From: an uncultured Candidatus Cloacimonadota bacterium
GTDB taxonomy: Bacteria > Cloacimonadota > Cloacimonadia > Cloacimonadales > JAJBBL01
Assembly: GCA_964490765.1 (NCBI GenBank)
Contig: CAZBDV010000010.1
Coordinates: 2,451 to 66,450 of the forward strand
Direction of reading: 5' to 3'
Length of the DNA stretch: 64,000 nucleotides
Of this stretch, positions 30,183 through 59,189 are shown piece by piece. The stretch's first letter is position 1; the number at the start of each line of letters is the position of its first letter. Position numbers and translations under genes: made by a program. Under the pieces are notes generated by a model. The model was not told where the DNA came from, did not search any database, and saw nothing but the letters and a program-made list of their open reading frames with translations.

Positions 30183-31136
30183 ATGAGAAGTAGTGTGATC
30201 AGTATCGGAGTTGTATTGTTGCTCATCTTTGCAGGATGTGCAACGGTTCCGCAACCTAATGTGGTCAATGTATCGACTGATACACCTGCGGTCAGTCCTG
30301 TACTTGCAGACAATCAGCCAAGATCATTGAAACGTGTAGTGGCCATAGCTCGGTTCAGTAATGAGACAAACTATGGTAAAGGGTTATACTTGGGTAACGC
30401 ATATGATGCTGGGAAGCAGGCGATGGATATAATGAATACAAAATTGACTCAATCGGGTAAATTTATACTCCTCGAGAGGTCTGACCTGGAATTTCTGGAG
30501 AGAGAGAAGGTTTTTGATCATTCAGCAATGGATCAGATACCGGCTGACTATTTGATAATCGGTTCTATAACCGATTTCGGCAGACGAGCAACAGGGAAGG
30601 TGGGGATTTTCAGCCGCACTCAGAAACAGACTGCTTACGCTAAAGTAAATGTCCGGCTAGTTGATGTGAGAACAGGTCAAATAATATATGGAGAGACAGG
30701 TGAGGGAGAGGCTTTTAGTGAAGCTGGAACTGTTTTGGGAGCCGGGTCTCAGGCTGGTTACGATTCTACATTGAACGATAAGGCGATTGATGCAGCCATC
30801 AGTAAACTAGTTGTCAATATCTCCAATAACTTGCTCAACAATCCCTGGAGGTCATACATACTTTCCCAGCAGGACGGGATCTGGATGCTTGCTGGTGGGA
30901 AAACTCAAGGTATCAAGGTCGGTGATGTATTTACTGTAAAGTTAAGGGGAGATACGGTTATCAATCCGCAGACGAAACTTCCCATAGAGCTACCGGGAAC
31001 CAACGTAGCCAGGTTACGGGTGATACAATTGACAGGAGAAGATCTACAGAGTGAAATCTCTTTCTGTGAGTTACTCGATGGGGAAATTGACTCCGGACAA
31101 TTGACCCGATACTTCGTCACCGAAGACGAACAATAA
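30183..31136 (+). CDS. CsgG/HfaB-family lipoprotein with an extra C-terminal beta domain
   Basis: Lipobox IFAGC. KRVVAIARFSNETNY...LERSDLEFLEREK...IIGSITDFG matches the CsgG-family core. About 95 extra C-terminal residues. Confidence 0.75.
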   Translation: MRSSVISIGVVLLLIFAGCATVPQPNVVNVSTDTPAVSPVLADNQPRSLKRVVAIARFSNETNYGKGLYLGNAYDAGKQAMDIMNTKLTQSGKFILLERSDLEFLEREKVFDHSAMDQIPADYLIIGSITDFGRRATGKVGIFSRTQKQTAYAKVNVRLVDVRTGQIIYGETGEGEAFSEAGTVLGAGSQAGYDSTLNDKAIDAAISKLVVNISNNLLNNPWRSYILSQQDGIWMLAGGKTQGIKVGDVFTVKLRGDTVINPQTKLPIELPGTNVARLRVIQLTGEDLQSEISFCELLDGEIDSGQLTRYFVTEDEQ

Positions 31137-31461: not shown

Positions 31462-31835
31462 AGAAAAGACTATTATGGATTATTCCGTTATTCGTTATCA
31501 CAATTACCGCCTGTTCTCAGAACCAGACCGGATCTTATTACTGGGACAAATATTCCCATACGCAATATGCCTATCTAAAGAACCCTTCGCTCGAGACTCT
31601 GGACAGACATATAACAACTCTGGAGAAGATCATTTCGGTATCCAGACAGAGAGGATTAAAGGTTCCACCTGGTGTCTATTCCGAACTGGCTATGATGAAA
31701 TGGCTGAAACATCCGGAAGGTGACGTTAGCGAATATCTTCTGAAAGAAGTTAATGCCTATCCTGAATCGCAGGAATTTATCAACTTCTTGATCCTTAATC
31801 TCTTTGCTGGAAGTGAGGTGCATGATGAGGAGTAG
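31458..31835 (+). CDS. DUF4810-family lipoprotein
   Basis: Lipobox ITAC. YYWDKYSHTQYAYLK...LEKII...GLKVPPGVYSELAMM matches the recalled DUF4810 pattern (YYWG.Y....Y.YLK...LE....G..VPPG). 4-nt overlap with the upstream ORF. Confidence 0.7.
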   Translation: MKKRLLWIIPLFVITITACSQNQTGSYYWDKYSHTQYAYLKNPSLETLDRHITTLEKIISVSRQRGLKVPPGVYSELAMMKWLKHPEGDVSEYLLKEVNAYPESQEFINFLILNLFAGSEVHDEE

Positions 31836-31836
31836 T

Positions 31837-32517
31837 ATGACAGACAGTGTAGTGGTTCTCCTTATCATTATGACTTTTTGCCTGTTGTTCACATCCGGCT
31901 GTTCACAGAGTCTGACAAAGGGACAGGTATTTCCCAGAATGTATGAGGAACGACCAGTGACAATACTTGCCCTGCCACCAGTCAATAAAACAACCTCACC
32001 TGTTGCCAAAGAGTATGTGATCTGTACGATAACAGAACCATTGGGAAATACCGGTTATAATCTTTTACCGATTGTTATTACCAACGAGATATTGAAGATA
32101 GAAGGGCTGTATGATACCGAAGTTATCAATCCCACACTCTACCCCCAATTCCGGGATTTATTCAATGTCGACGCTCTTCTCTTAACGGAAATCTTCAGTT
32201 GGGATACGAGTTATTACGTGATTGGTGGTGAAGTGACTGTCGGGTTGAACTATAAACTGGTTTCAACTCATACTGGAGAGGAACTCTGGAAATATTCTGG
32301 AGCGAAAACAGTTGATACGACTAAAAAATCAGAAGGTGGAGGTTTATTTGGCCTGGCAGTTGCCCTGGTAGAAACAGCGGTAACTACTGCGGCAACAGAT
32401 TATATACCGATAGCTCGTGAGATTAATCAATCGATCTTCCAAAATCTGCCTAAAGGGAAGTATTCTCCAGAACACGGACTTGACCGGGACGACCCGGTAG
32501 TAATCGAAAAGCAATAA
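31837..32517 (+). CDS. DUF799-family lipoprotein (GNA1162-like)
   Basis: Lipobox FTSGC. ILALPPVNKTT...GYNLLPI...VDALLLTEIFSWDTSY...YKLVSTHTGEELWK aligns with the recalled GNA1162/DUF799 pattern. ATG at 31837 follows GAGGAG (track start 31804). Confidence 0.7.
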   Translation: MTDSVVVLLIIMTFCLLFTSGCSQSLTKGQVFPRMYEERPVTILALPPVNKTTSPVAKEYVICTITEPLGNTGYNLLPIVITNEILKIEGLYDTEVINPTLYPQFRDLFNVDALLLTEIFSWDTSYYVIGGEVTVGLNYKLVSTHTGEELWKYSGAKTVDTTKKSEGGGLFGLAVALVETAVTTAATDYIPIAREINQSIFQNLPKGKYSPEHGLDRDDPVVIEKQ

Positions 32518-40140: not shown

Positions 40141-42405
40141 ATGTCAGGTATAAGAGGTATCTTTACCGGTTTGTTAGTCTTAGGATTTTTCGCCATGGTC
40201 TCTCCAATCTTTTCTCAGAGTCTGGAGATAGAGGGCTGGGGGAGAGATAATTATGGCCAGATTACAGATATACCAGATGGGTCCGATTTTGTTTCGATAG
40301 CCTCGGGAGGAGATCATAGTGTGGCTATCAGACAGGACGGCAGCCTGGTGGCCTGGGGGTATAATGTCTATGGTGAATGTAATGTACCTGCAGGTTTCGA
40401 TTATGTAAAGGTCTCGGTAGGAAGAAACCACAGCATAGCGTTAAAAGAGGATAACACTATAGTTGCCTGGGGTAGAGATTGGAATGACGTACTGGCAGTG
40501 CCTGCCGGCAATGACTTTGTTGATATTTCGGCCGGTTATCAGCACAATCTTGCTCTGAGAGATGACGGTAGTATCGTGGGCTGGGGCAATAACAATTATG
40601 GCCAGGTCACTGTTCCTTTCGGGAATGATTATGTAGCGGTAGAGGCTGGTGGATATCACAGTGTAGCACTCCGTGAGAATGGGACTATTACCGCCTGGGG
40701 AAGGAACTGGCATAATGTTTTGAATGTTCCTGCCGGTAATGATTTTGTCGCTATCAGTGCCGGTTATTATCAGAGCATGGCTTTGAGGGAGAATGGTACA
40801 GTAGTAGTCTGGGGAAGTGACGAAGATGACCAGGTAAGTCATACACCAACAACTTCCGATTTTGTTGCTGTATCTGCTACAGGTAATGCTCACTGTATAG
40901 CATTAAGAGAGGATGGCAGTGTTATAGCCTGGGGTGCAGGAGAAGAGGGTGAAGATGGCTTATGGGATCATGGACAGAGTATCTATCCCGATGGGAATGA
41001 TTTTGTTGCCATTGCTGCTGGCAGATTACACAGCCTTGCACTCGTAATGACCGAGCCCCCTTCCGAATACACCCTTACTATTGGAGTTGAGGGAAACGGA
41101 ACAACCGATCCTGAACCGGGAGAGTATGACTATGATGTCGGTACTGAAGTTTTAATCACAGCATACGCTCAAGAAGGATGGGAGTTTGACAGATGGGTGA
41201 TCAATGGCGACGATGTTTTTGAAAATCCCCATACTTTGATAATGAATTCCAACATAACAGCAATAGCCCACTTTGTTCCTGCTGAATATAGCCTTGTAAT
41301 CGAGGTTGAAGGTGAGGGCACAACAGATCCGGAACCGGGTGAATACTTCTACATGGCGGGAGAAGAGGTTGAAGTAACAGCAATCGCTGATGAGTACTGG
41401 TATTTCTGGATGTGGGTTATCGATGATGATTCTTTCTTCGAAAATCCTCATACAGTGCTAATAGATGATGATGTTACTATAGTAGCGCACTTTTTACCTT
41501 TACCACCTCCACAGAATCTCTTTGCACTGGCAGGAGATGGCGTTGTCTGGTTGGAATGGGAATATCCCGACCTACCTGTCGATTTGCACTGTAATTCCAC
41601 GCCTATCGCAGTGGAGCAAACATACAAACGGGAGTTAGCAGAAAGGCAAGATTTTCAGGGCTTCAATCTCTACCGGGATGGTGTGCAGTTGAATACGGAA
41701 CTTTTGACAGAAAACGAATACGAAGATTCTGGTCTCGAGAATGGAGTTACTTATCTCTATTATGTAACAGCAGTTTATGCAGAGGGTGAGTCAGCCCAGT
41801 CCAATGAAGTGGAAGCCACTCCGGAAGAGTTGCTTCTTCCTCCTCCGACAGGTTTGGAAGTGGAAATGTTAGAAGATACTGTGACCCTGTCCTGGATAGA
41901 ACCTGATCATGGTGATCTAATCTTGACCGGGTATAATGCCTATCGTGACGATGTCATGATCAACTCTGAACTGATTGAGGAGACAAATTTCCCGGATACA
42001 AATTTCATTCCGGAACCAGGTGTTATCTATGAATACTATGTAACAGCCGTTTATCTCGATGGAGAGTCTGATCCTTCTGAGGTAGTGGAGTTTATGATAA
42101 CCGGTTTGGAAGATGATCTGGTTTCTGCAAGAACAGCCCTTCTGGGAAATTATCCCAATCCCTTCAATCCCCGGACAGCTATCTCTTTCAGTCTTGCTGA
42201 ACCTGGACCTGTCAGGATAGAGATCTTCAACAGCAGAGGTCAAAAGTTAAGAGAGCTGGTAGATAGTTATTACGATAGTGGTGAGTACAGTATAATCTGG
42301 GATGGGACAGGCGATAACAACCAGCAGGTTGGTAGTGGCATCTATATCTACAGAATGATCAGTAATAATTATCAGGAAACCCGTAAAATGATAATGTTGA
42401 AATAG
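40141..42405 (+). CDS. Secreted RCC1-repeat beta-propeller protein with InlB-B-repeat-like and Fn3-like modules and a T9SS C-terminal sorting domain
   Basis: About 7 repeats of the type DFV.I.AG..HS.AL..DG..V.WG.N.YGQ. Two YTLTI/YSLVIEVEG.GTTDPEPGEY...W.F..WVI modules. C-terminus YPNPFNPRTAISFSL...SGIYIYRM...TRKMIMLK. Confidence 0.85.
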   Translation: MSGIRGIFTGLLVLGFFAMVSPIFSQSLEIEGWGRDNYGQITDIPDGSDFVSIASGGDHSVAIRQDGSLVAWGYNVYGECNVPAGFDYVKVSVGRNHSIALKEDNTIVAWGRDWNDVLAVPAGNDFVDISAGYQHNLALRDDGSIVGWGNNNYGQVTVPFGNDYVAVEAGGYHSVALRENGTITAWGRNWHNVLNVPAGNDFVAISAGYYQSMALRENGTVVVWGSDEDDQVSHTPTTSDFVAVSATGNAHCIALREDGSVIAWGAGEEGEDGLWDHGQSIYPDGNDFVAIAAGRLHSLALVMTEPPSEYTLTIGVEGNGTTDPEPGEYDYDVGTEVLITAYAQEGWEFDRWVINGDDVFENPHTLIMNSNITAIAHFVPAEYSLVIEVEGEGTTDPEPGEYFYMAGEEVEVTAIADEYWYFWMWVIDDDSFFENPHTVLIDDDVTIVAHFLPLPPPQNLFALAGDGVVWLEWEYPDLPVDLHCNSTPIAVEQTYKRELAERQDFQGFNLYRDGVQLNTELLTENEYEDSGLENGVTYLYYVTAVYAEGESAQSNEVEATPEELLLPPPTGLEVEMLEDTVTLSWIEPDHGDLILTGYNAYRDDVMINSELIEETNFPDTNFIPEPGVIYEYYVTAVYLDGESDPSEVVEFMITGLEDDLVSARTALLGNYPNPFNPRTAISFSLAEPGPVRIEIFNSRGQKLRELVDSYYDSGEYSIIWDGTGDNNQQVGSGIYIYRMISNNYQETRKMIMLK

Positions 42406-43837: not shown

Positions 43838-45862
43838 TTATTTGAGAAGCATCATCTTACTATATAAGTCTCTTTCGGAGGTTTGCATACGAGAGAAATA
43901 GAGTCCTGAGGGGAGAAGATTGCCCTCCTGATCTTTCCCATCCCAGAGAACTTCGTATCTACCGGCTTCTTTATATTCATTGACCAGTATTTTCACCCTC
44001 TGTCCGCGGATATTATAGATAGTAATATTGACCGGAGTGTTCTCTTTAAGATCGTAAGAGATAACCGTTTCCGGGTTAAACGGGTTCGGTCTGGCCGAGT
44101 AAAGACGGGTATCCGAAATGAGGTGCTGATCATCATCTACTCCGGTAGTAATGATAGTATATTCTACTTCTGTGGTCGGACTTGCCTGCCAATCTTCATG
44201 GAAAGTTTTCGCCCTCAGTAGAACAGTCTCATCAATCAAGATCGGTATCTCATACAGAGTTGAGTTCTCTGTCGGTTCCTCTCCATTTAAGGTATAGTGG
44301 ATATTCCCGATCCCGTTCGGTGAAGTAAGATTAACATAGACAAAATTCTCATACTCGCCACCCGGTGGGTCAACTTCCGGAGCCGGTAACTGATCAAGGA
44401 CCGTAACATTGATTAAATTTGAAGATCCGGATTCTCCCAGATCCTGGTATACGGCAGTTACGTAGTATGAGTAGTCACCCGGGAAGAGATTGATATCCAT
44501 GTAATCGTTCGTATCCAGTAGTTCATCGTTGATAATCTCATAAGGTCCGGTTCCAAAAGTCTGTCTCCAGACATTAAAACCTTCCAGGACAATATCCTCA
44601 AGTTCAGGGGGGATAATGGGACTATCCCAGTTCAGGACTGCATTGAAGCCTTCGATGTTAACCTCTAGATTTAAGGGAACAGGAAGAACAATCTGATATG
44701 GTGCACCTCTGTGAACTATTCCATACTGGATACCACCGTCAAATGAAACGTTTTTTTTCAGGAGTTGAAAGCCACCTGAGTGATCGAGAAGCAGGGTAGG
44801 ATTTTCCCATATGTCTGTTCCGAAAGGATTACTTAATTCCCAGGTATCATTTGCATTATGGCTGTAGTAGATCAAACCAGTAGCAAAATTACCATCCACC
44901 TCTACCATTACTATATGAACATTTCCTTCCGGATCGACCACGATTGTTGGGTCAACCAGGGACAATGTCCCACTAACGAGTTCTGGAGCAGTCCAGATCA
45001 GGCTGTTTATATGACGTCTGCTGTAGTATGTCCTCCAGGGAAAGCCAAAGCCATCCTGGCCGGAATGGGCAAGATGTATTGTATTATCTATGATTTGGAT
45101 CGCAGAGGCGAGGTCATTAGCATTGGGTGTGTTGATTATCTCATAATTCCAGTCGAATTCTCCAGCCTCTTCATTCTGAGCGATATGGATATGATATTCA
45201 CCATACGTTCCTCCTCGATAGGCGATAGCTGTTATGCCACTCGTATCCACAGCGATAACAGGTTCCGCTCCCAGGCCAAATTCTCCCAGCCAGCTTTCCA
45301 TCAGGACATCGTGAGACCAGTTGCCGTTATAATCGGTTATATAAATCAATTTAGGTTCATCTGCCATATTTGATGTAATACCAACTATATGAACCTTACC
45401 CTGAGTGTCGATTGTAGCATCTATATAAGCGATATTACTCGTTCCAGTAGATATACTCTCTGTTGTCCAGTCTCCCGTTTCTTCCCGACTGACTTCATAG
45501 AGGGAGCCTCCACTGGCAGCGTAGAATTTGATTTCATTCTGATATGGATCCAGGATCAGAGCCATATCAATTGTATATCCAAAATCGGTTGTTATCAGTT
45601 CCGGGACTGACCATTCATCAGCGGTATTACGGTTAATATAATAGAGATTGAAGTTGTCTCCATCTTCCTGCCCGAATATAATGTGTATAGTGTTATCAGA
45701 ACTGATCTGTATAGACCGCTTTGCGATAGATTTGTTTACACTGTTACCACTAATCTCTGTCGTAATTGTATTATCCCAATCCGGTACCTGCGCCATCAGG
45801 ATATTGGCGAGAGCAACTAATATAGTTGCTGTTATAACTATAAGATACTTTCTTCCAGTCAT
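43838..45862 (-). CDS. Secreted beta-propeller-like protein with Fn3-like and chitobiase-C-like modules and a T9SS C-terminal sorting domain
   Basis: Signal peptide. Recurrent ...G..HI(V/A).. blade-like repeats. IHYTLNGEEPTENS module. C-terminus RPNPFNPETVISYDL...SGLYFSRM...YSKMMLLK. Confidence 0.8.
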   Translation of the reverse strand: MTGRKYLIVITATILVALANILMAQVPDWDNTITTEISGNSVNKSIAKRSIQISSDNTIHIIFGQEDGDNFNLYYINRNTADEWSVPELITTDFGYTIDMALILDPYQNEIKFYAASGGSLYEVSREETGDWTTESISTGTSNIAYIDATIDTQGKVHIVGITSNMADEPKLIYITDYNGNWSHDVLMESWLGEFGLGAEPVIAVDTSGITAIAYRGGTYGEYHIHIAQNEEAGEFDWNYEIINTPNANDLASAIQIIDNTIHLAHSGQDGFGFPWRTYYSRRHINSLIWTAPELVSGTLSLVDPTIVVDPEGNVHIVMVEVDGNFATGLIYYSHNANDTWELSNPFGTDIWENPTLLLDHSGGFQLLKKNVSFDGGIQYGIVHRGAPYQIVLPVPLNLEVNIEGFNAVLNWDSPIIPPELEDIVLEGFNVWRQTFGTGPYEIINDELLDTNDYMDINLFPGDYSYYVTAVYQDLGESGSSNLINVTVLDQLPAPEVDPPGGEYENFVYVNLTSPNGIGNIHYTLNGEEPTENSTLYEIPILIDETVLLRAKTFHEDWQASPTTEVEYTIITTGVDDDQHLISDTRLYSARPNPFNPETVISYDLKENTPVNITIYNIRGQRVKILVNEYKEAGRYEVLWDGKDQEGNLLPSGLYFSRMQTSERDLYSKMMLLK

Positions 45863-45920: not shown

Positions 45921-45936
45921 TGCAATAATCATTCCA
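45921..45936 (-). promoter_or_regulatory. Candidate sigma-54 (-24/-12) promoter for the 674-aa cargo gene
   Basis: Minus strand reads TGGAATgattaTTGCA. GG and GC are at the exact consensus spacing and the TTGCA -12 box is complete. It lies 59 nt upstream of the ATG at 45862. Confidence 0.4.
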
Positions 45937-46399
45937 AAAGTATGCATAAGCTCTATCTGAAATAGAACACGTAGATATCGTACTTTACTGTTACATCAAT
46001 AGCGTGCAAGCTAATAGAATATAACTACCATATATTATACTTGTTCACTTAACATGAGGCACCCAATAATGGTAAAAAACTAACCGGAGGATGTTTATTA
46101 GCCGGGCATTTATCAACCGGTGAGCAACATACACGCTAAAACATTGCTTTTGGTGGGAGGCATGAACCGCTTGATCTGCTTCTGGCTGTATCCTGTCGAA
46201 GAGACAAAGAAACGTAAGAGGGAGTAATGATTAATTAACGGGGTAGAAATAGATCGCTGAAAAAAAGAATCTGATCAGGTAGAGAAAAAGCTTTACTTAA
46301 GAATCATACTTCAGTTTATGGTAAAAAATAATAAGAAGGGATATTTTCCAGAGATATTTCAGTTATAGTAAGGAAGAGGAATATAACGGAGGCTAATCA

Positions 46400-48868: not shown

Positions 48869-48944
48869 GGGCGTTTAGCTCAGTTGGGAGAGCGCTTGCC
48901 TTACAAGCAAGATGTCGGCGGTTCAAGTCCGTCAACGCCCACCA
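48869..48944 (+). tRNA. tRNA-Val: tRNA-Val (anticodon UAC), CCA encoded
   Basis: Acceptor GGGCGTT/AACGCCC. Anticodon stem CTTGC/GCAAG with loop CTTACAA. T-arm GGCGGTTCAAGTCCGTC. Confidence 0.92.
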
Positions 48945-49385
48945 TTTTCCCTGCTTCACCTTCCTCTGGTTTTTCCTGATCTCCGATCCCGGATCTCTGT
49001 TCACCCTTTTTTTCTTCCTGCTTCACCTTCCTCTGGTTTATACCTCATCACTTCATTACTCCATCACATCATCCCTCCTTGCTTTACCTTCTAATGGCAA
49101 AACCATGTCACTTTATTACCTCGTTACTCCGTCAACACGTTACCACTTTTCTTCTTGCTTCACCTTCCTCTGGTTTTTCCTGATCTCCGATCCCGGATCT
49201 CCCTTCACCCTTTTTTTCTTCCTGCTTCACCTTCCTCTGGTTTTTACCTCATCACTTCATTACTCCATCACATCATCCCTCCTTGCTTTACCTTCTAACT
49301 AATGGCAAAACCCTGTCACTTTGTTACCTTGTTACTTTGTCACCCCGTAACCTCTTTTCTCCTTGCTTTTCTACCGCTGGATCTA
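48928..49385 (+). repeat. Pyrimidine-rich higher-order tandem repeat (2 units of about 200-208 bp plus a partial third) that starts within the tRNA-Val 3' end
   Basis: Unit boundaries: TCCGTCAAC at 48928 and 49128, TTTGTCACC at 49336. Each unit holds three sub-repeats carrying CTTGCTTYACCTTC(C)TCTGG (seven occurrences: 48951, 49018, 49078, 49154, 49222, 49282, 49362). Confidence 0.9.
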
Positions 49386-49648
49386 TCTATTCTCTCCCCT
49401 CTACTATATATGCTTCACAAAATTTTTCCATATTTCTCTGAACTTCTCTTAAAACCCCTCCAGTAAACTCATCCAATCATTTTGATTTTTTTTAAACTTA
49501 TTTCAGTTTTTTCCCCCTCTCAGTTAATGATTATCATAGCACAACTTAGCTAAACTCTGGCAATAGAACAGAAATTATACTTTACAATTTGAGCTATCTC
49601 TGCTCATAGATAAGGAAGATTACAGGCAACAACGGAGGTTTGCCAACC

Positions 49649-51163
49649 ATGCCGAAAGCAAAAAACAAAGTAAAGCTTGATAAAATGGTGTTTCCCGACC
49701 CAGCAGAGAAGATCGCTATCGTCGAGAAGGTAGAGAGCAGCGATGAAATTCTCACCGGGCAAAGGATCGATTCCACCAGCAGTATAAATGAGTTGATAAT
49801 GCAAGACCTGGAACTACCTTTTCATCAGAGAGTACTCAGATTGAATCAATACACCAGGAATTACACCGTTGACAGAGATGGTCCGAACGTTCTCTTTCTC
49901 TCCTCGACCGAAGGTGGTTTTCCCAGAAAGGGATTGAGAATGCTCGGTAAAGAAGGAGAGGTCACAGGGTATTATCCCGCTCTGAACTTCGTCGATCTTG
50001 TCTTGAATGAGGATTCCGTCAGAGAGGGTGCACTGCATATCTTCTCTCATGAATTGGGTCACGTAATGATGAACAACATCATCCCCTCTTTCGCCAGGGT
50101 TCCAGAAGAAAAGACCAGTTCTATCCAGCACGTCAGTATGGGGGTAACCGATTATTTCACGGCCTTCTTTGAAGGCTGGGGCAATCATTTCCAGTATTTT
50201 GCCCATAGTATACCGAAATACAGGGAAGCTCTGGACTTTCTCTACCAGCCGCAAAATATACCGAAAACCCTCTGGCACTGTACCATTGAACGCGAATTAC
50301 GTCAGAGTGGAGTACTGCGCAACGCCTATATCTATGAAAAGCCTCTCTTTCCCGAACTCTACTCTCCGGACATATCACTGATAGATAAGGTACTTCTGGA
50401 ACACACCTATCCGCAATTCAACCCGTTGAAACTGCGTAATGCCCAGCAGATGCTGAGTTGTGAAGGCGTTATATCCACCATATTCCACAGGATAGTGAGC
50501 AGTCCGGTAATCCAGCGTAATTATCAGGTCGCTGCATTCTATACCCCTTTTTGCCTTGAGCCGTTAGAAGGGGAGATCAAAGAGCTAATTTCTCCTTACG
50601 AAAACGTAATGCTCAAGAACTTCCACGTCTGGGCTCAACTTGAAAAGTCACAGAACTACCTCTATTCTCCGGTCTTTATCGAATACCTTATGGAATGGTG
50701 CCGCGCCTTCCCGGAAGATAGCAGGGAACTGCTCTCTATCTTTATCAATATGACTGCCGGATCCACGATTTCGTCTACAGCTCCCGGGCTTTATGAAAAG
50801 GCTGCCTTCTATGGGATCAAGGGTGACATGGATAATTTCGTTGCAGCGCTGAAAGAATACATTTGCGAGATAGACAAGCTTATCAGCGCGGCCTGTGACG
50901 ACCCTGCTAACTTAGCTCAGAACATCGGTCCCGAATTATGGATAGAAAACAAACACTTCCGGATAAGGAAATACCTCTGGCTCCCGGAACCCTTGACAAC
51001 CTTCCGCCTGAATATCAATACCGCCTCTCCAATAGAACTCTCTACCCTGCCCGGAATGGATCTCCCGCAAGCTCTGCAGGTTTCTGAAAAACGCCGGGAA
51101 AGAGGTTTCTTCCAATCCTTCGCAGAGGCTGAAGAATGCGGTCTTGTCCTGCCCAAAAACTGA
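49649..51163 (+). CDS. Cytoplasmic HExxH metallopeptidase-like protein with a C-terminal helix-hairpin-helix (ComEA-like) motif
   Basis: IFSHELGHVMM zinc motif with a downstream FFEGWGNHF (possible third ligand). The C-terminal LNINTASPIELSTLPGMDLPQALQVSEKRRERGFF resembles ComEA-type HhH. No signal peptide. ATG at 49649 follows GGAGG. Confidence 0.6.
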   Translation: MPKAKNKVKLDKMVFPDPAEKIAIVEKVESSDEILTGQRIDSTSSINELIMQDLELPFHQRVLRLNQYTRNYTVDRDGPNVLFLSSTEGGFPRKGLRMLGKEGEVTGYYPALNFVDLVLNEDSVREGALHIFSHELGHVMMNNIIPSFARVPEEKTSSIQHVSMGVTDYFTAFFEGWGNHFQYFAHSIPKYREALDFLYQPQNIPKTLWHCTIERELRQSGVLRNAYIYEKPLFPELYSPDISLIDKVLLEHTYPQFNPLKLRNAQQMLSCEGVISTIFHRIVSSPVIQRNYQVAAFYTPFCLEPLEGEIKELISPYENVMLKNFHVWAQLEKSQNYLYSPVFIEYLMEWCRAFPEDSRELLSIFINMTAGSTISSTAPGLYEKAAFYGIKGDMDNFVAALKEYICEIDKLISAACDDPANLAQNIGPELWIENKHFRIRKYLWLPEPLTTFRLNINTASPIELSTLPGMDLPQALQVSEKRRERGFFQSFAEAEECGLVLPKN

Positions 51164-51329: not shown

Positions 51330-52766
51330 TTAACCCTTACCGGTGATCCTTTTCAATCTGTTAAGCGATATCTTTAGATAGCGGGCAGCCTGGGTCTTAT
51401 TTCCGTCGAACAGTTCGAGTGCTTTCTTCACGATCTCCTGTTGGGCAAGGTCGAAATCGAGTTCATCTTCCGGATATTGCAGGCAGAGGGTCCGGTCAAG
51501 ACCTGCCTGCTTGATTTTAGCTCCATCTATCAGGTAGGCGAAATCGGCAGCCGTCAATTCACCTTTTTCCGTCAGGAAAGCGGTACGTTCCACCGCGCTT
51601 TTCAGTTGCCGGACATTTCCCGGCCAGGAATAGCTGTTGAGAAACTCGATACAATCACTGCTAAGTGTTTTCAGTCTCACGTTGTTAGTTTCAGCCCATT
51701 TTTTCAGGAAAAGTTCCGTCAGGGGGATGATCTCCTCTTTTCTCTCTCTTAAAGGTGGTATAAAGATATGCGCCGAATTGATCCTGTAGTAGAGGTCTTC
51801 CCGGAAACTATTATTCTTGATCTTCTTTTTCAGATCTTTATTAGTAGCACAAATCAATCTCACATCGATCTTTTTACTGGCTATCCCGCCCACTCTGTAT
51901 ATCTCCCGCTCCTCGAGAGCCCTGAGCAGTTTCGATTGCTGCGTAATGGGTATTTCTCCGATCTCATCGAGCAGCAGTGTACCACCCTGAGCCAGTTCGA
52001 ATTTACCCTTCTTCCCCTTGCGGTCGGCACCGGTAAAGGCACCCGCTTCGTAGCCGAACAATTCACTTTCGAACAGGTTTTCCGGGATGGCGGCACAGTT
52101 GACCGTGATATACGGCTTTTCATTGTATTCTTCTCCGTAATGGATGAGCCGGGCAATGATCTCCTTACCGGTTCCGGTCTCACCTTCGATCAAAACGGGA
52201 ATGTTCCTGTTCTGATTAAGTTTTCTGGCCAGTTCCACGATTTCATTCATCTTGGTGGAGAAGAACCCGATCGTACCCAGTCCGAGACTATAGAAGTATT
52301 TTTCGTGCAACTGCTTGAATTTCGTCAGGATATCGGAACATTCTTCCTGTAGCCGCTCTTCGAATTGTGTTGATAAGATCCGGTTCTCTGAGAGGAGAGA
52401 CTGATGTTCTGCCACCCGGTCCAGTACTTTCATCAATAACCCGATATCTATCGGTTTTGTCAAAAAATCATAAGCACCGAGCCTCAATGCTCTGATGACG
52501 AAATCCATCTGCTGCTGGCCGGTGATGAGTACTATATCGATATCCTTCGCTGATGGGATCCGCTTCAACTGCTCCAGCAGATCGAATCCCGACATATCGG
52601 GCATCACGATATCGGAAACAATAAGATGAAAATTCTCCTTCTTCAAGATCTTCAGAGCTTCCATAACACTGCTGCAGTCGCGTACTTCGTGCCCGAGTTT
52701 ATTGCTTATATACACCTTGAGGCTTTTTCTCAGTTCGGCGTCATCATCTATCAGGAGTATCTTCAT
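51330..52766 (-). CDS. Sigma-54-dependent response regulator (NtrC/AtoC family: REC, AAA+, Fis-type HTH)
   Basis: REC domain (KILLIDDD...VSDIVMPDMSG), Walker A GETGTGKE, GAFTGA loop (YEAGAFTGADRKG), C-terminal HTH NKTQAARYLKISLNRLKR. Confidence 0.9.
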   Translation of the reverse strand: MKILLIDDDAELRKSLKVYISNKLGHEVRDCSSVMEALKILKKENFHLIVSDIVMPDMSGFDLLEQLKRIPSAKDIDIVLITGQQQMDFVIRALRLGAYDFLTKPIDIGLLMKVLDRVAEHQSLLSENRILSTQFEERLQEECSDILTKFKQLHEKYFYSLGLGTIGFFSTKMNEIVELARKLNQNRNIPVLIEGETGTGKEIIARLIHYGEEYNEKPYITVNCAAIPENLFESELFGYEAGAFTGADRKGKKGKFELAQGGTLLLDEIGEIPITQQSKLLRALEEREIYRVGGIASKKIDVRLICATNKDLKKKIKNNSFREDLYYRINSAHIFIPPLRERKEEIIPLTELFLKKWAETNNVRLKTLSSDCIEFLNSYSWPGNVRQLKSAVERTAFLTEKGELTAADFAYLIDGAKIKQAGLDRTLCLQYPEDELDFDLAQQEIVKKALELFDGNKTQAARYLKISLNRLKRITGKG

Positions 52767-54451
52767 TCCTTTTCCCTGTCCTGTTTTTTAAATGTCAGCA
52801 CGAATTTCGCACCGTGAGGTTCTAAATTACTGACCTCGATACTTCCATCATACCGCTCGACAAACGTCTTGACGATCGTCAGACCAAGGCCGGTACCCTG
52901 CTCCTGGGTCAGCGGCTTGGTAGAATAAAAAGGTTCGAATATCCTGGCTAAATTATCCTCCGGAATCCCCGGCCCGTTATCCTGCACAGTGAGATGTACT
53001 CTGTCGAAACTCTCCTGCAGGCCGATCTCGATGCTTTTCCTGTTATCCTGCATAGTGCTGAGTGCCTGCAGGGCATTGATGATCAGGATGATGATGATCT
53101 GCTCCAGATATGTCGGTACGAAGTCGATGAAGATATCCTCTTCCGGCAGGTTGAGATCACAGATAACCCCGGCAGAATAGATCTTGTGTCTTACACACTG
53201 AATACACTTGTTGATAGCCGCTTTGATATCTACCCTTTCACTCTGTCTCGATTCCTGCGAGCGGTAAAAATTCTTCATCTGGGTAATGATCTCGTTTATA
53301 TGCTGGACGGAGTTCTTGATGGAATGAAGAAATTCAACGGCATCATCGTGACTCGTTCCGTTAGTTCTATTCATACAGAACAGTGAATTCTCGACATTGA
53401 GGGCTATTGCCGAGAGTGGTTGATAGATCTCGTGCACGATACCGCTGGTAATGGCCGTTATGGAAGTGAGCCGGGCGGTCTTTTCCAGCAAACCTTCGTA
53501 TTTGATATTTTCCACCTCATTTTTATGCTCCAGAAGCAGCTTTGCCATCCTGTCCATCATCCTGTCGTTTAGCAGTTTCTCTTTCAGCTCTACGTATTTA
53601 TTCAAATATTCATTAGATTCTTTATAGGCACCTTTCTGCTGATAATAATCAGCCAGAGAGGCAAAAACTCCCAGCTTGTGCTCGGTATTTTCGCTCTTCT
53701 CCGCATAATCGAGTGCTCTCTTAAGATGTTCATAGGCTTCGTCGATATTATGCTCGATCAGAAAACTACCCAGTTTCTGATGAGCAAGATAGACGGTATC
53801 ATCGTTTCTTCTATCGGCGACCTCTACAGCCTTTTTTAGATAGTTCAAAGCCTGCCTGTGATCTTCCAGATTCATGTAAGCTACCGCTATATTGAGCAGG
53901 GATATTACCTTGCTGCGACCTTTGATAGCTCTATCGTCTGCCGGAGCATACTCGTAAGCCTTGAGGGAGTATTCTAAGGCTTTATCATACTCCTCTCTGG
54001 CTGTATAGACAGCAGATATGTTATTACAGACCCTGGCCGGATTAACTTCATACTGCAAAGCCTGCTGAAAATATGACAGAGCACTGTCATAATCCTGCAT
54101 CGTTACGTAAACTGTTCCAATATTATTCAGACAATCACCTAAAATACTGCTATTATCGATCTCTCTGCACAGTTTCAGGCATTCCAGATAATGATCCAGT
54201 GATTTACCGTATTCGTTGAGGTAATTATAATTCAGGCCCAGATAATAATGAGCATCTGCCAGTTGCTCCGGATCATCGATGCTCTCTGCAAGAGATCTTG
54301 CCAGCTCGGCATATTTCAAACCCTCCCGGTAATTACCTTCAGACCATTGCTGGCTCGCTATCTTAGATAAAAGCTGTAACCGGTCATTGATATCACGAGA
54401 ATTGTCGAGTCTGTATAGCAACTCTTTTACATTGCTTTGTTGTTCAGACAC
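52763..54451 (-). CDS. Cytoplasmic TPR-repeat sensor histidine kinase
   Basis: Multiple TPR-like repeats (e.g. AHYYLGLNYNYLNEYGKSLDHYLECLKL). H-box VHEIYQPLSAI, N-box LIINALQAL, G-boxes QDNGPGIP and GTGLGL. No hydrophobic segment. GTG start after GGGAGG. ATGA overlap with the regulator gene. Confidence 0.85.
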   Translation of the reverse strand: MSEQQSNVKELLYRLDNSRDINDRLQLLSKIASQQWSEGNYREGLKYAELARSLAESIDDPEQLADAHYYLGLNYNYLNEYGKSLDHYLECLKLCREIDNSSILGDCLNNIGTVYVTMQDYDSALSYFQQALQYEVNPARVCNNISAVYTAREEYDKALEYSLKAYEYAPADDRAIKGRSKVISLLNIAVAYMNLEDHRQALNYLKKAVEVADRRNDDTVYLAHQKLGSFLIEHNIDEAYEHLKRALDYAEKSENTEHKLGVFASLADYYQQKGAYKESNEYLNKYVELKEKLLNDRMMDRMAKLLLEHKNEVENIKYEGLLEKTARLTSITAITSGIVHEIYQPLSAIALNVENSLFCMNRTNGTSHDDAVEFLHSIKNSVQHINEIITQMKNFYRSQESRQSERVDIKAAINKCIQCVRHKIYSAGVICDLNLPEEDIFIDFVPTYLEQIIIILIINALQALSTMQDNRKSIEIGLQESFDRVHLTVQDNGPGIPEDNLARIFEPFYSTKPLTQEQGTGLGLTIVKTFVERYDGSIEVSNLEPHGAKFVLTFKKQDREKE

Positions 54452-54767
54452 GGTTCTGACCTCCCATTTAAAACAATGAAATGCCAGCTACCCGCCTTAA
54501 TATGTCAAGTAATTTGAAAATTTATCTCTCCGATCGGTTCCCGTAAAACACCTCAGGTTCTAACCACCTGCTTACCCGGAAATAGCCGGTTGATACTATC
54601 ACAGAGGATTTGCCAAATATTATATCATTTTTATATGGAAAGAGTGTTGACCATCCATATCGCCTGTTCATTTTGGATAACTAAAAGTGGAGAAATTAGC
54701 TTATCACAGGTCTGCTATAAGCCATAAAACAATATCCACTAATATCTTATGGTCGTCTTACCCCCTT

Positions 54768-54783
54768 TGGCACCTTTCTTGCA
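54768..54783 (+). promoter_or_regulatory. Sigma-54 (-24/-12) promoter
   Basis: TGGCACctttcTTGCA is a full match to the TGGCAC-N5-TTGCW consensus. It lies 106 nt upstream of the ATG at 54890, in the divergent intergenic region next to a GAFTGA activator gene. Confidence 0.75.
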
Positions 54784-54889
54784 ATTAAGAGGACCAAGAG
54801 GGATTAGATAAAGAAAACCAGCAGCAACGAAACAGCTGCTAACATTAATTAAGCGTAAAAGATTAGTAAACGATAGGAGGTTAACTAAT

Positions 54890-57298
54890 ATGAAGACTCA
54901 GAACTTGATTTTGATAGTTGGTATAATCCTTGCCCTGAGTTCCCTGTATGGTAACTGGGAAGGTTATTTACCTACTTATGTGGTACATACTTTGTACGAA
55001 GATGGTGATTATTTGTGGCTCGGTACAACAGGCGGTATTATTCATTATAATATCCATACCGAGGAGAAGACCTACTACAATACTCTGAATACCGGTCTCC
55101 ACACGGTAAAGATAACTGCTCTGACCAAAGACCAGCAGGGGAATTTATGGGTTGCTTCTACCTTTGATAACTACCGGGTGACAGGTTATGACTTCGATTT
55201 TGAGGCTCCGACGCTACAAAGAGAATATTGGGCGGGGCTCTACAAATTCGCTACCGATGGTGCGTGGCATTTTTACAATTTCGAGAACACTCCGCTGGAA
55301 TTCGATGTGATCCATGCCCTGGCCGTAGATAATGATAACAAACTCTGGATAGGAACGATTCACTATGGTATCTTTGTACATGACCTGAATGATGGAAGTT
55401 GGACAAACTATACCAAAGAAAACGCCGATATCGGGTCCAATCATATCAGATCGTTCTACGTCAGGGATAATGGCGAGGTCTGGGTTGGGCACTGGCCAGA
55501 TGAAATCCTGGAGCCCAGGTATATTACTGAAGATCGCGACCCGGGAGAGATCCTCGAACCAATGCAGGATCGCTTCGATAAGCAATATAAATGGGAAGAA
55601 CTTGTTTCTGATGGCGGGGGGATCTCCAGATATCATAACGGAGTCTGGACAAACTTTTTTGATCAGCTTCCCAAAGAACATCCCGAGTCCAGTACGGTAC
55701 ATGATATAACTGAAGATGCAAATGGTATACTCTGGTTTGCAGCCACGCTTGACGGTTTTCTCAGCTATGACGGTTATGAGTTCGAGCAGTATCTACTCCC
55801 TTATGAGCCTTATTTTGAGATGTCGGGAATGCCATTTGGGATCGATTTTGATCATGACGGCAATATCTGGCTGGGTACCAATATCGGCATTTATACCTAT
55901 GATGGTGATGAACTGATCAGATATCATTCCGGTAACGGACTGAATCACGAGTACGCCATTACCATCATCCATACTGACTCTTTCAACAATGTCTGGATGG
56001 GTAGCGACTTTAAAGGGCTTTTCAAATATCACAACGGAACAATTACCGAAGCGGAGATCGATTCTGAAATAGCCTGCTATCCGATCAGATCTATTGAGGT
56101 TGATGCTTCCGGTAGGCTCTGGATCGGTGCCGGTGAAAATGTGCTCAATATGGGAACCGGTGGACTGTACAGCTTTGACGGAGATCAGTGGGATTTCTAC
56201 GGTTGGGATCTCATCGATACCTGGCGTGTAAACGATATCTTTACCAGAGACGGTTACATCTATCTGGCAACCGGAGAGAACGGAGATGAAGGTGGTGCTG
56301 CCGTTTATGACGGGACTTCCTGGACGATACATAATTTTTCCACCAGTGATTATGTCCTATGGGCCGGTCATTCCATCACTGCCTGTGAAAACAGGATCTG
56401 GGTCGGTGTTGACGATACCAATGGCGGGCTATCCAGATATGAGAACGGGCAATGGACACTTTACACTTCGGCTAACAGCGGGTTGGCTACAAACAATGTC
56501 ACTACTGTTGCTGTTGATCCACTGGACAATTCCGTCTGGGTAGGTTCCAGATTCGGACTCTACAACTTTGACGGCTCTAACTGGACTTACTATTTCTCTT
56601 TCATGTATCCTGAGTTGACCTATGATTATATCAACGATCTCTATTTTGACGACCAGAACACTCTCTGGGTCGCAATGGAGATGGGTCTGGCCAGTTATGA
56701 CGGTGAGGTATGGCAGAACTACGATCACCTCTTACCGTATTTTGATGGATGGGGTACTGCACCGGTCTGGTCGGTTACCAAAGACGAGTATGACAGGGTC
56801 TGGATAGCATTTTTCGGTGGGGTGATGATGCTCGATCTCGATAACAACGAAGTAGAAACTTTTGATATGGCGAATTCACCGCTTCCGACTAACTTTATCC
56901 CCCAGGTTCGTTCGGACAGGAATGGTAAATTATGGATCAGGACCTGGTCCGATGGTCTCTATGCCTACGAATACGGACAGCATCTCTCCGTTCCGGATGA
57001 CATTGTTGCTGATAACCAGTTACGTGCTTATAATTACCCGAATCCTTTCAATCCCACGACAAGCATTGTCTTTGATAACCCCCACCCCTCCAATATCTCG
57101 CTTGATATCTATAACGTCAGGGGACAGAAAGTCAAGACCCTCCTGGATCGAGAATACCTGGGCAAGGGTGTCCTGAACGTTATCTGGGATGGTTCCGACA
57201 GCAGGGGTAATTCTGTTTCTTCTGGGATCTACTTCTATACGATCTCCGATGATGAAGGGAGATATCGCATTATAAATAAAATGATGATGATTAAATAG
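54890..57298 (+). CDS. Secreted beta-propeller protein built of two-component-regulator-propeller-like repeats, with a T9SS C-terminal sorting domain
   Basis: Signal peptide. Many repeats of the type (N/D)..LW(V/I)GT..G(L/I)..Y(D/N). C-terminus YPNPFNPTTSIVFDN...SGIYFYTI...INKMMMIK. AGGAGG RBS. Confidence 0.8.
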   Translation: MKTQNLILIVGIILALSSLYGNWEGYLPTYVVHTLYEDGDYLWLGTTGGIIHYNIHTEEKTYYNTLNTGLHTVKITALTKDQQGNLWVASTFDNYRVTGYDFDFEAPTLQREYWAGLYKFATDGAWHFYNFENTPLEFDVIHALAVDNDNKLWIGTIHYGIFVHDLNDGSWTNYTKENADIGSNHIRSFYVRDNGEVWVGHWPDEILEPRYITEDRDPGEILEPMQDRFDKQYKWEELVSDGGGISRYHNGVWTNFFDQLPKEHPESSTVHDITEDANGILWFAATLDGFLSYDGYEFEQYLLPYEPYFEMSGMPFGIDFDHDGNIWLGTNIGIYTYDGDELIRYHSGNGLNHEYAITIIHTDSFNNVWMGSDFKGLFKYHNGTITEAEIDSEIACYPIRSIEVDASGRLWIGAGENVLNMGTGGLYSFDGDQWDFYGWDLIDTWRVNDIFTRDGYIYLATGENGDEGGAAVYDGTSWTIHNFSTSDYVLWAGHSITACENRIWVGVDDTNGGLSRYENGQWTLYTSANSGLATNNVTTVAVDPLDNSVWVGSRFGLYNFDGSNWTYYFSFMYPELTYDYINDLYFDDQNTLWVAMEMGLASYDGEVWQNYDHLLPYFDGWGTAPVWSVTKDEYDRVWIAFFGGVMMLDLDNNEVETFDMANSPLPTNFIPQVRSDRNGKLWIRTWSDGLYAYEYGQHLSVPDDIVADNQLRAYNYPNPFNPTTSIVFDNPHPSNISLDIYNVRGQKVKTLLDREYLGKGVLNVIWDGSDSRGNSVSSGIYFYTISDDEGRYRIINKMMMIK

Positions 57299-57307
57299 GA
57301 GTTAAAA

Positions 57308-59080
57308 ATGAAGAATATAAGGTTTAATCAGTTATTGTTAAGTATTGTTTTACTGCTTGCTGCTGCTTTCTGTTACTCGCTGACAGATCTGCAGCCGGAA
57401 TTTGGAAACGCTTCCGGATACAGGAATTCCGTTCCGGAAATAGAACAGGTAAATTTGTCATATGATGTGGATGGCTGTTACATCTATATGAGTTGGCTTC
57501 CTTATGAAGAGGAGGATAACATCGGTTTCAATCTCTATCGTAATAATGAATTTCTCGACTATATCGAAAGGGAAACATATGCATGGGGCTACTATTACGC
57601 CGATTATGATGTTATTAATATGAACCAATACAGTTATTACCTGACTTTCGTCTATGATGACGGAGAGTCCGACCCTTCCGAGACTGTGGCAGTATGGGTT
57701 CTCTACCCACCCTATCCGATCACTGCCCTTCCCTATGGGGATCATGTAGTGATAACATGGGAAGCACCGGAAGAAGATACACGCCTGATCAACGGATACA
57801 ATATCTATAAAAACTTCGAACTACTCAATCCCGAACCGGTCACTGAACTTGCATACATTGATTATGATGTAAACCAGGGGATGCTCTATAACTATTTAGT
57901 GACTGCCGTCTATGAAGATATGGGAGAATCTGCTGAATCTAACTGTTTCTATGTCATCGTAGAAGACAAAGTCGATCCACCTCAGAACATACTACATACA
58001 GTTGATATCGACGAAGTTATGCTCTCCTGGGAGCGTCCTGCAAATAACGGAAACTGGTATCGTTTTGACGATGATACTGTCGGAGGTGCCTACGTATCTG
58101 ACAGCGGAGATTTTACAGCAGTGATCCATTATGATCTCATGGACCTCTTCAACTACAATAACTGGAGACTTGAGAGAATCAGTTTTGTTCCTCTATCAGA
58201 TGAAGGGACATATACTTTTGAGTTATGGGAAAAATCTCCCTGGAGTCCTGATACATATGAGTTATGGACCCAGATAGAACTGGAAGATATAGTTCCGAAT
58301 GAATGGAACACCGTTCCTGTTTCGGAATGGGATGGTCCTGTGATCGCAGGCGGTTATACTCAGTTCAGGATAGCTATCAGATGTGAAGGTGTTAATGCCG
58401 GCATTGCTTATGACGATAGCCCTAATATGCACGAACGTTCTGACTTGCTGATCATAGACGGTAATGAAACAAACCTCTCTGAACAGGGGATAGATGCAAA
58501 CTGGAAGATCAGGGGATACATGTCTCCGCCACAACCTTTTGTGCCCGGAAATGGAATCGAGTTATTGGGATATAATCTTTATCGTGATGATGTGCTGATC
58601 ACTCAGCTGGCTGAAATCAATGAACACTTCATTGAAACAGGTCTTGCCGATGGCGTGTATCAATATCATATGACTGCAGTTTACGAGATCGAGATCGGTT
58701 TTGATGTATATTACATTGAATTTGAATCGATGGAATCGGAGCTCGTAACGGTCTCGGTCGGCATCACAGGAGTAGAAAAGGATCCCGTACAGGAGATCGT
58801 CACCAATGATGTCATTCTCCATAACTATCCCAACCCCTTCAATCCTGATACGACGATTACTTTCAGCCTGAACAACCCTTCCAGAGTGCAGATCGATATC
58901 TATAACATTCAAGGCAGGAAAGTACGCTCTCTGGTAGCCGAAGAATTCTCTTCCGGTCTGCATCAGATCGTCTGGGATGGTACTGATGATTACAGAAAAC
59001 CTGTCGGCAGTGGTGTTTACTTTTCCCGCATGACCACCAAAAAGAGCACCAGTACCAATAAGATGCTGCTACTTAAATAA
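57308..59080 (+). CDS. Secreted Fn3-repeat protein with an unassigned central domain and a T9SS C-terminal sorting domain
   Basis: Signal peptide. Repeated GFNLYRN/GYNIYKN/GYNLYRD...Y.VTAVY modules. C-terminus YPNPFNPDTTITFSL...SGVYFSRM...TNKMLLLK. Starts 9 nt after the upstream gene. Confidence 0.8.
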   Translation: MKNIRFNQLLLSIVLLLAAAFCYSLTDLQPEFGNASGYRNSVPEIEQVNLSYDVDGCYIYMSWLPYEEEDNIGFNLYRNNEFLDYIERETYAWGYYYADYDVINMNQYSYYLTFVYDDGESDPSETVAVWVLYPPYPITALPYGDHVVITWEAPEEDTRLINGYNIYKNFELLNPEPVTELAYIDYDVNQGMLYNYLVTAVYEDMGESAESNCFYVIVEDKVDPPQNILHTVDIDEVMLSWERPANNGNWYRFDDDTVGGAYVSDSGDFTAVIHYDLMDLFNYNNWRLERISFVPLSDEGTYTFELWEKSPWSPDTYELWTQIELEDIVPNEWNTVPVSEWDGPVIAGGYTQFRIAIRCEGVNAGIAYDDSPNMHERSDLLIIDGNETNLSEQGIDANWKIRGYMSPPQPFVPGNGIELLGYNLYRDDVLITQLAEINEHFIETGLADGVYQYHMTAVYEIEIGFDVYYIEFESMESELVTVSVGITGVEKDPVQEIVTNDVILHNYPNPFNPDTTITFSLNNPSRVQIDIYNIQGRKVRSLVAEEFSSGLHQIVWDGTDDYRKPVGSGVYFSRMTTKKSTSTNKMLLLK

Positions 59081-59140
59081 CGCAGTAAGAAGATAAATCT
59101 TGTTCTCATAAAATCCTCATGCAACGAGGTAAATGACCAT

Positions 59141-59174
59141 CAGGGGGTTGGATTGTTCAACCCCTGTTTTTTTT
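59141..59174 (+). terminator. Rho-independent terminator of the two-gene cargo operon
   Basis: GGGGTTG gattgtt CAACCCC followed by T8. Confidence 0.8.
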
Positions 59175-59189
59175 AGAAGTAAGAATAAT

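Follow-up and report, generated by a model that had tools for sequence, protein, structure and literature searches.

A putative sigma-54 two-component circuit beside an operon for two T9SS-sorted proteins in an uncultured Cloacimonadota bacterium

In a 64,000-nucleotide stretch of contig CAZBDV010000010.1 (assembly GCA_964490765.1; this whole stretch is called the window below), from an uncultured bacterium of the phylum Cloacimonadota, the region 51330–59175 probably constitutes a local enhancer-dependent switch, in which a tetratricopeptide repeat (TPR) histidine kinase acts through an NtrC-type activator on a divergent sigma-54 promoter, and this promoter serves a two-gene operon for type IX secretion system (T9SS) cargo proteins. 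The circuit is the standard two-component sigma-54 arrangement beside its target promoter, with no new logic; what is new is the phylum, the fusion of a TPR sensor to a soluble kinase, and a possible regulon of two units with a shared upstream element. The uncultured phylum Cloacimonadota matters in anaerobic digesters and in anoxic sediments, and to our knowledge nothing is known about its gene regulation. The features of the locus, numbered from the first letter of the window, are:

51330–52766, minus strand: gene for an NtrC-family response regulator/enhancer-binding protein of 478 aa, with receiver (REC), AAA+, lid and Fis-type helix-turn-helix (HTH) domains
52763–54451, minus strand: gene for a soluble TPR-HisKA-HATPase_c histidine kinase of 562 aa, from Pfam domains and motif boxes
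54452–54767, no strand assigned: putative upstream activating region of 316 nt, with candidate sites CCGGTTGATA at 54586–54595 and ATTAGCTT plus an imperfect palindrome at 54695–54722
54768–54783, plus strand: putative sigma-54 (-24/-12) promoter TGGCACCTTTCTTGCA, the unique exact consensus match in the window (17.8 bits)
54795–54889, plus strand: predicted 5' leader of about 95 nt with two hairpins (RNA fold of -15.4 kcal/mol)
54890–57298, plus strand: gene 1, for a predicted secreted double seven-bladed beta-propeller protein (Reg_prop) of 802 aa with a T9SS type-A sorting domain
57308–59080, plus strand: gene 2, for a predicted secreted protein of 590 aa with tandem domains like fibronectin type III (Fn3) and a T9SS type-A sorting domain
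59143–59175, plus strand: intrinsic terminator closing the operon, with a 10-bp stem containing 5 GC pairs followed by GTTTTTTTTA

The divergent promoter and the regulatory genes

The sequence TGGCACCTTTCTTGCA is the sole exact match to TGGCAC-N5-TTGCW on both strands of the window, and also has the highest score there against a sigma-54 weight matrix that was built from the approximate frequencies of published promoter compilations. It has GG at -24 and GC at -12 with the canonical spacing, is close to TGGCACG-N4-TTGCW, and is located 106 nt upstream of the ATG at 54890, which is preceded by AGGAGG at 54875–54880; the original prediction, made from the sequence alone, had placed a full consensus match at this position and distance, and both are borne out. 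Base composition predicts about 0.05 exact matches in 64 kb, counting both strands, and about 2e-4 on the correct strand within the gap of 438 nt between the two divergent units that holds the promoter. The promoter is intergenic and points toward gene 1, and the activator operon begins 317 nt upstream on the opposite strand. The second-best matrix match in the window, TGGCACAAATACTGCA (12285–12300, plus strand, 15.3 bits), is probably due to chance since it is situated within a cytidine/deoxycytidylate deaminase gene (12145–12618, minus strand), in antisense orientation.

Transcription should start near 54793–54795, judging from the position of the -12 element, and the leader 54795–54889 that would result folds better than shuffled sequences (z = -3.25), with one predicted hairpin at 54820–54840 and a second one that encloses the Shine-Dalgarno sequence. 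An Rfam search of the long gap and the leader matched no riboswitch or known RNA family, and any function of the leader could only be a presumed one.

By ORF calling the genes for the kinase and the regulator have 4 nt in common, in agreement with the divergent pair originally described, and the kinase gene has a GTG start with GGAGG 8 nt upstream. The regulator is recognized in Pfam by Response_reg (PF00072, 3e-26, 92 bits), Sigma54_activat (PF00158, 4e-66, 222 bits), AAA_lid_14 and HTH_8 (PF02954, 26 bits). The receiver residues D8/D9, D52, T82 and K104 are present, as are the Walker A (GETGTGKE, 195–202) and Walker B (LLLDEI, 264–269) motifs, and the GAFTGA motif that had been reported for this REC-AAA+-HTH protein is found at 242–247. 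The AAA+ domain with GAFTGA, the receiver Asp and the C-terminal Fis-type HTH place the regulator among the NtrC-family enhancer-binding proteins, and from these motifs it is proposed to activate the sigma-54 holoenzyme using ATP hydrolysis.

The kinase has five TPR_12 stretches followed by HisKA (28 bits) and HATPase_c (86.7 bits), and contains the histidine H340, the N-box (457–463), the G1 box (DNGPGI, 491–496), the F box (FEPF, 505–508) and the G2 box (GTGLGL, 519–524), so that together with Reg_prop in gene 1 all four families that the original prediction had proposed for a search (Sigma54_activat, TPR, HisKA and Reg_prop) are matched. No transmembrane segment was detected in the kinase by hydropathy in windows of 19 residues. 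The most hydrophobic stretch, residues 440–458 with a Kyte-Doolittle value of 2.07, is the N-box helix within HATPase_c and is the only 19-mer exceeding 1.6, and because this sole strongly hydrophobic stretch lies inside the ATPase domain the 562-aa kinase is regarded as soluble; the absence of a hydrophobic segment claimed for it thus stands, with the N-box helix as the only such stretch.

The operon and its predicted secreted products

Genes 1 and 2 are separated by 9 nt, and the stem of the terminator is located at 59143–59165 with a T-run after it, close to the 59141–59174 given originally. Both products were expected to carry a signal peptide and a T9SS sorting domain, and this is supported by hydrophobic N-terminal h-regions at residues 3–21 (gene 1) and 8–26 (gene 2), the signal peptides being judged by hydrophobicity alone, and by matches to the T9SS type-A sorting domain model TIGR04183 with 29.8 and 40.3 bits respectively at a cut-off of 23. 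The corresponding Pfam family PF18962 (Por_Secre_tail) matches gene 2 with 32.2 bits and gene 1 with 23.8 bits, just under the cut-off of 27. No catalytic domain was found in either product by domain and fold searches.

The product of gene 1 scores 118 bits with Reg_prop, and its AlphaFold2 model, based on 29 homologues, has a pLDDT of 82 and a pTM of 0.78 and consists of two seven-bladed propellers and a C-terminal beta-sandwich. With this model Foldseek finds in the PDB the periplasmic sensor domains of the Bacteroides hybrid two-component systems (HTCS) BT4663, BT4673 and BT3049 (E 1e-32 to 1e-27) and PorZ of Porphyromonas gingivalis (5m11, E 9e-27), the latter giving the best global superposition among the PDB matches (TM 0.45/0.48). 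Gene 1, PorZ and BT4663 (4a2l/4a2m) all have seven-bladed Reg_prop propellers in tandem, with an Ig-like domain behind them at the C-terminus. Unlike the HTCS, gene 1 lacks transmembrane and kinase parts; of the series that makes up a hybrid sensor protein (Reg_prop propellers, Y_Y_Y, a transmembrane helix and kinase/receiver/HTH domains) it has the propellers only, Pfam detects no Y_Y_Y or kinase domains in it, and its C-terminus is the sorting domain. The Reg_prop assignment of the original prediction is in this way confirmed, but a free secreted protein of this kind is not unusual as was then supposed, since the architecture is common: dozens of free proteins with propellers and a sorting domain are found among the top homologue matches of gene 1, and PorZ is a solved example.

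Gene 1 might also be the PorZ of this organism, the component of the attachment complex of the T9SS from which the sortase receives lipopolysaccharide, in which case the circuit would tune the secretion and attachment machinery instead of a pair of cargo proteins. Besides the superposition, the shared order of signal peptide, two seven-bladed propellers and sorting domain points in this direction, and the NCBIfam PorZ model NF052228 is the top match of gene 1 (E 5e-35), but the score of 121.1 bits is below the cut-off of 260, and phmmer against the PDB finds HTCS sensors (3e-23) and no PorZ. Numerous paralogous proteins with propellers and a sorting domain exist, and not even the close relatives have an orthologue of gene 1, whereas a core machinery gene would be expected to have one there. 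This identity is therefore quite unlikely, and with the score under the cut-off and PorZ missed by the sequence search, gene 1 has a PorZ-like architecture but is not a member of the PorZ family.

The product of gene 2 contains two copies of the RGI_lyase-type (Fn3-like) beta-sheet domain in Pfam. An exhaustive search finds many repeats of its modules within giant proteins of 1,000–6,000 aa that carry a sorting domain. The AlphaFold2 model has a pLDDT of 68 and leads in Foldseek to fibronectin-III tandems only, and the middle beta domain is modelled with low confidence and has no specific fold match.

Sigma-54 sites, upstream elements and a possible second target

A scan of species-representative genomes based on BamA gave 72 loci, nearly all from Cloacimonadota (older name Cloacimonetes), with the best BamA matches at 78–84% identity. 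In 1.23 Mb of Cloacimonadota sequence 7 of the 10 matrix sites of at least 16 bits are intergenic, compared to the 13% expected (P = 5.5e-5), an indirect sign that sigma-54 promoters function in this phylum. A control set of 80 unrelated metagenomic activator loci yields strong sites with the same matrix, most of them intergenic. An enrichment of matrix sites before genes with the sorting domain, which had been suggested as a check, is not seen in the Cloacimonadota sequence: among the seven strong intergenic sites only the one in the window stands before a cargo gene, and cargo genes make up 44 of the 939 called genes of the sample. In two of the related loci (L046, 8221–8236, and L047, 9300–9315 on the minus strand) the near-perfect TGGCACGGCAATTGCA with 19 bits is located 326 nt upstream of an ATP-grasp gene, which is likely another sigma-54 target.

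Three GAFTGA activators are present in the Cloacimonadota loci. In the relative L006, with 67% BamA identity, the segment 12739–16838 (minus strand) in the same variable region past tRNA-Val holds a one-component TPR-AAA+(GAFTGA)-HTH activator, directly followed by a perfect TGGCACGCTTATTGCA (14480 to 14465) and then by the gene of a secreted GLUG-repeat protein that has a signal peptide and is without a T9SS sorting domain. Another relative, L066, has a TPR-kinase and activator pair with no strong sigma-54 site nearby. From these two cases TPR-linked sigma-54 activators beside genes for exported proteins recur in the phylum, in both one- and two-component forms.

The promoter match could be unused, either arising by chance or left after loss of rpoN, with the operon being read from an unrecognised housekeeping promoter. 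The rpoN gene was not found in the part of the genome that was covered (about 82 kb), promoter types in Cloacimonadota are uncharacterised, and no sigma-70-like sites were called in the 438-nt gap, by a scan that may not suit this phylum. Against this, the activator motifs are all intact, which is unexpected in a relic, sites with high scores show a strong intergenic enrichment throughout the phylum, and TGGCACCTTTCTTGCA is the best site in the window with the correct placement and orientation. An unused site is on this evidence highly improbable, and rpoN is presumed to be encoded elsewhere in the genome.

In the 316-nt upstream region the 10-mer CCGGTTGATA might be a site for the activator. 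It is present in exactly two copies in the window, 182 and 184 nt upstream of -24 elements and in the same orientation, and a shared 10-mer at matched distance arises in 0.57% of shuffles. The second copy precedes a weaker candidate promoter:

45921–45936, minus strand: candidate second sigma-54 promoter TGGAATGATTATTGCA (13.0 bits), 58 nt before a T9SS cargo gene
46111–46120, minus strand: the other copy of CCGGTTGATA, at 184 nt upstream of the -24 element of this candidate promoter
43838–45862, minus strand: possible second target, a gene for a BNR-like T9SS cargo protein of 674 aa with weak BNR_4, CHB_HEX_C_1, Fn3_assoc and sorting domain matches in Pfam

The two promoters have TTGCAATT in common at the -12 element, and ATTAGCTT occurs in both candidate upstream regions, at -73 in the main and at -79 in the second. 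Apart from the main site (17.8 bits) and TGGAATGATTATTGCA, the upstream regions of cargo genes in the window reach at most 6.8 bits, and the gaps upstream of the operon (438 nt) and of 43838–45862 (537 nt) are the two longest of any cargo unit in the window. A global alignment of the two candidate upstream regions gave no colinear similarity past the short motifs, and the matrix scan found no further sigma-54 sites in another 18 kb of this genome. On the shared elements, the cargo gene 43838–45862, 9 kb away, may quite possibly be a second target of the same regulator. Three other candidate elements were discarded. The palindrome GCTTATCACAG-GT-CTGCTATAAGC is equalled in 27% of shuffles of the 316-nt region, the TATCACAG direct repeat is not specific to the locus because this 8-mer is over-represented throughout the window, mostly inside genes, and a copy of ATTAGCTT at 13500, within the ORF of a small lipoprotein, is taken as chance.

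The kinase and regulator might instead act on distant targets, another activator firing the promoter and the adjacency being incidental. This would agree with the candidate status of the activator sites at the main promoter, including a palindrome that is not significant, and with the L066 pair that has no strong site nearby. Activators, however, usually act on adjoining promoters, which is the case for L006 and for the majority of the 80 control loci, a perfect site in the 438-nt gap has a chance expectation of about 2e-4, and no other activators are present in 82 kb of the genome, which makes incidental adjacency very unlikely.

Several observations weigh against the local switch or its extension to a second target. 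With an RpoN-box regular expression and Pfam, rpoN was absent from the window, from the extra 18 kb and from the related loci, and a literature search on sigma-54 or rpoN in Cloacimonadota gave nothing relevant. The palindrome at 54699–54722 is no better than chance, though unique in the window. The searched collections contain no orthologous locus with which the promoter or the upstream motifs could be compared. The Pfam scan finds no T9SS core machinery gene in the window, and the T9SS has been described only as possibly present in Cloacimonadota (PMC11285876). The second site TGGAATGATTATTGCA carries two mismatches in the -24 hexamer, and the argument from shared motifs for a second target is post hoc.

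The surroundings of the locus are variable. The gene order BamA, tRNA-Pro, tRNA-Val is kept in the closest relatives, and the genes past tRNA-Val differ in each of them; since synteny stops exactly at the tRNA-Val repeat, the sigma-54 locus seems to sit in a variable or insertion-prone region. This repeat is a tandem direct repeat of about 205 nt at 48939–49368 that starts from the 3' end of tRNA-Val, with copies that are 95 and 86% identical. In protein and metagenome collections the kinase, propeller and Fn3 proteins have no homologues above 26–38% identity besides identical copies (none above 26% for the kinase), the best full-length matches of the regulator have 35–37% identity, and the other contigs with the locus are from the same strain and 100% identical. 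With homologues so distant, and the remaining contigs from one strain, the circuit is on sequence comparison lineage-specific.

Seven cargo genes with the same sorting domain are found in the 64 kb, and an eighth just past the right end. Apart from genes 1 and 2 they encode an M28 peptidase, an S8 subtilase, an RCC1-repeat protein, the BNR-like protein and an M12 metalloprotease, and with cargo genes this dense the adjacency of the regulatory genes to one of them weighs little. The RCC1-repeat protein (40141–42405, plus strand), and an ankyrin-repeat protein of 385 aa (16749–17906, minus strand), have eukaryote-like repeats. Convergent with the regulator gene is an ORF of 507 aa (49640–51163, plus strand) with a zinc-protease-like HELGH (HExxH) motif and a weak C-terminal helix-hairpin-helix match; a signal peptide and matches to other families are absent, and the related loci contain no homologue of it. 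A CsgG-family gene (30183–31136) lies close to a GNA1162-like lipoprotein gene (31804–32517, plus strand), and the pair may be a curli-type or related module for outer-membrane export.

Proposed mechanism and relation to known systems

By the domain composition of the four proteins, the switch would respond to a cytoplasmic cue that alters the activity of the soluble TPR kinase, most likely a protein or peptide partner as TPR arrays are protein-binding modules. The kinase should autophosphorylate on His340 and transfer the phosphate to Asp52 of the regulator, which might then oligomerise in the 316-nt region, with CCGGTTGATA at about -182 and ATTAGCTT with the palindrome at about -73 as candidate sites. 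Via ATP hydrolysis and its GAFTGA loops the regulator would open the closed complex of the sigma-54 holoenzyme at 54768–54783, and transcription would proceed from about 54794 through the leader of about 95 nt and the two cistrons to end at 59143–59175. Both products are expected to cross the inner membrane by Sec and to leave the cell through the T9SS by means of their type-A C-terminal domains, probably ending on the cell surface, where product 1 could be a double-propeller binder of a ligand or glycan, having the fold of HTCS sensors and PorZ, and product 2 a stalk rich in Fn3 modules or an adhesin-like protein. The cargo gene at 43838–45862 might well be under this regulator too. The wiring from kinase to activator, promoter and operon that was first suggested fits all tests run, with the modification that the switch would set the synthesis of the cargo and not its export.

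The domain order of the regulator, the HisKA/HATPase core of the kinase, and the position of the regulator genes next to the target promoter are as in NtrB/NtrC, AtoS/AtoC and ZraS/ZraR, and NtrB is likewise a soluble kinase. In contrast to these systems the sensor is a TPR array, and not a PAS or periplasmic domain, and the targets are secreted surface proteins. PorX/PorY/SigP of P. gingivalis, which had been named as the regulatory comparator, likewise connects two-component signalling with the T9SS. PorX, however, does not belong to the AAA+ activators and acts together with an extracytoplasmic function (ECF) sigma factor, and since PorXY-SigP controls the T9SS machinery genes it is the wrong comparator for cargo. 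None of its components were detected at the locus in Pfam and NCBIfam scans.

The original prediction knew of no characterised sigma-54 control of T9SS cargo, which is contradicted by the remFG-sprCDBF operon of Flavobacterium psychrophilum, where a sigma-54 motif was found in a genome-wide study of transcription starts and confirmed by promoter mutagenesis (PMC9723704). As at the present locus, a -24/-12 promoter stands ahead of an operon for a T9SS-secreted surface protein, in that case SprB, and the sigma-54 targets of this species include exported proteins of unknown function (PMC9723704). Unlike here, the cognate activator of remFG-sprCDBF is unassigned and not adjacent, and that operon is served by a second promoter as well; SprB, a gliding adhesin, bears no relation to the products of genes 1 and 2.

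Nor is the logic different from that of known systems, as had been supposed, since it is already used by PrsK/PrsR/PrsT of the PEP-CTERM system (PMC1569441, PMC9850573). In Prs, sigma-54 promoters are combined with a kinase, a TPR protein and an activator of the NtrC type (Haft et al. 2006, PMC1569441), and RpoN dependence of the PEP-CTERM gene pepA has been shown experimentally (PMC9850573). The two systems share a REC-AAA+-HTH activator of the NtrC type, a histidine kinase and a TPR module, and -24/-12 promoters in long intergenic regions before genes for C-terminally sorted proteins. In Prs the TPR protein PrsT is separate and PrsK is membrane-bound, whereas at the present locus TPR and soluble kinase form a single fusion protein, and the cargo of Prs carries PEP-CTERM in Proteobacteria, whereas here it carries T9SS type-A domains in Cloacimonadota. 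The top NCBIfam model for the regulator is PrsR (TIGR02915) with 349.8 bits, below the cut-off of 502.6, the kinase reaches 66.6 bits with PrsK (TIGR02916) at a cut-off of 300, and all scores of the two proteins against NCBIfam equivalog models are under the respective cut-offs. Prs is the closest parallel in logic, and with the PrsR score under its cut-off the relation is one of analogy and not of membership.

The TPR kinase and activator might further head a small, dedicated sigma-54 regulon whose members are T9SS-sorted surface proteins, with at least two units, 9 kb apart, that share CCGGTTGATA as an enhancer element about 183 nt upstream of the -24 box, in which the TPR would read an intracellular protein signal; such a T9SS counterpart of Prs is a tentative idea and somewhat doubtful. 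If it is true, the TPR could for example monitor the condition of the secretion pathway, or respond to a metabolic partner.

Cloacimonadota genomes are packed with T9SS-type surface and secreted proteins, and a self-contained switch with a predictable promoter and one or two defined targets would offer a handle that can be transferred to a heterologous host. That sigma-54 controls the bacterial exterior is an established generalisation, and the circuit adds to it a case from outside the Bacteroidota, leaving the picture unchanged (PMC3162934).

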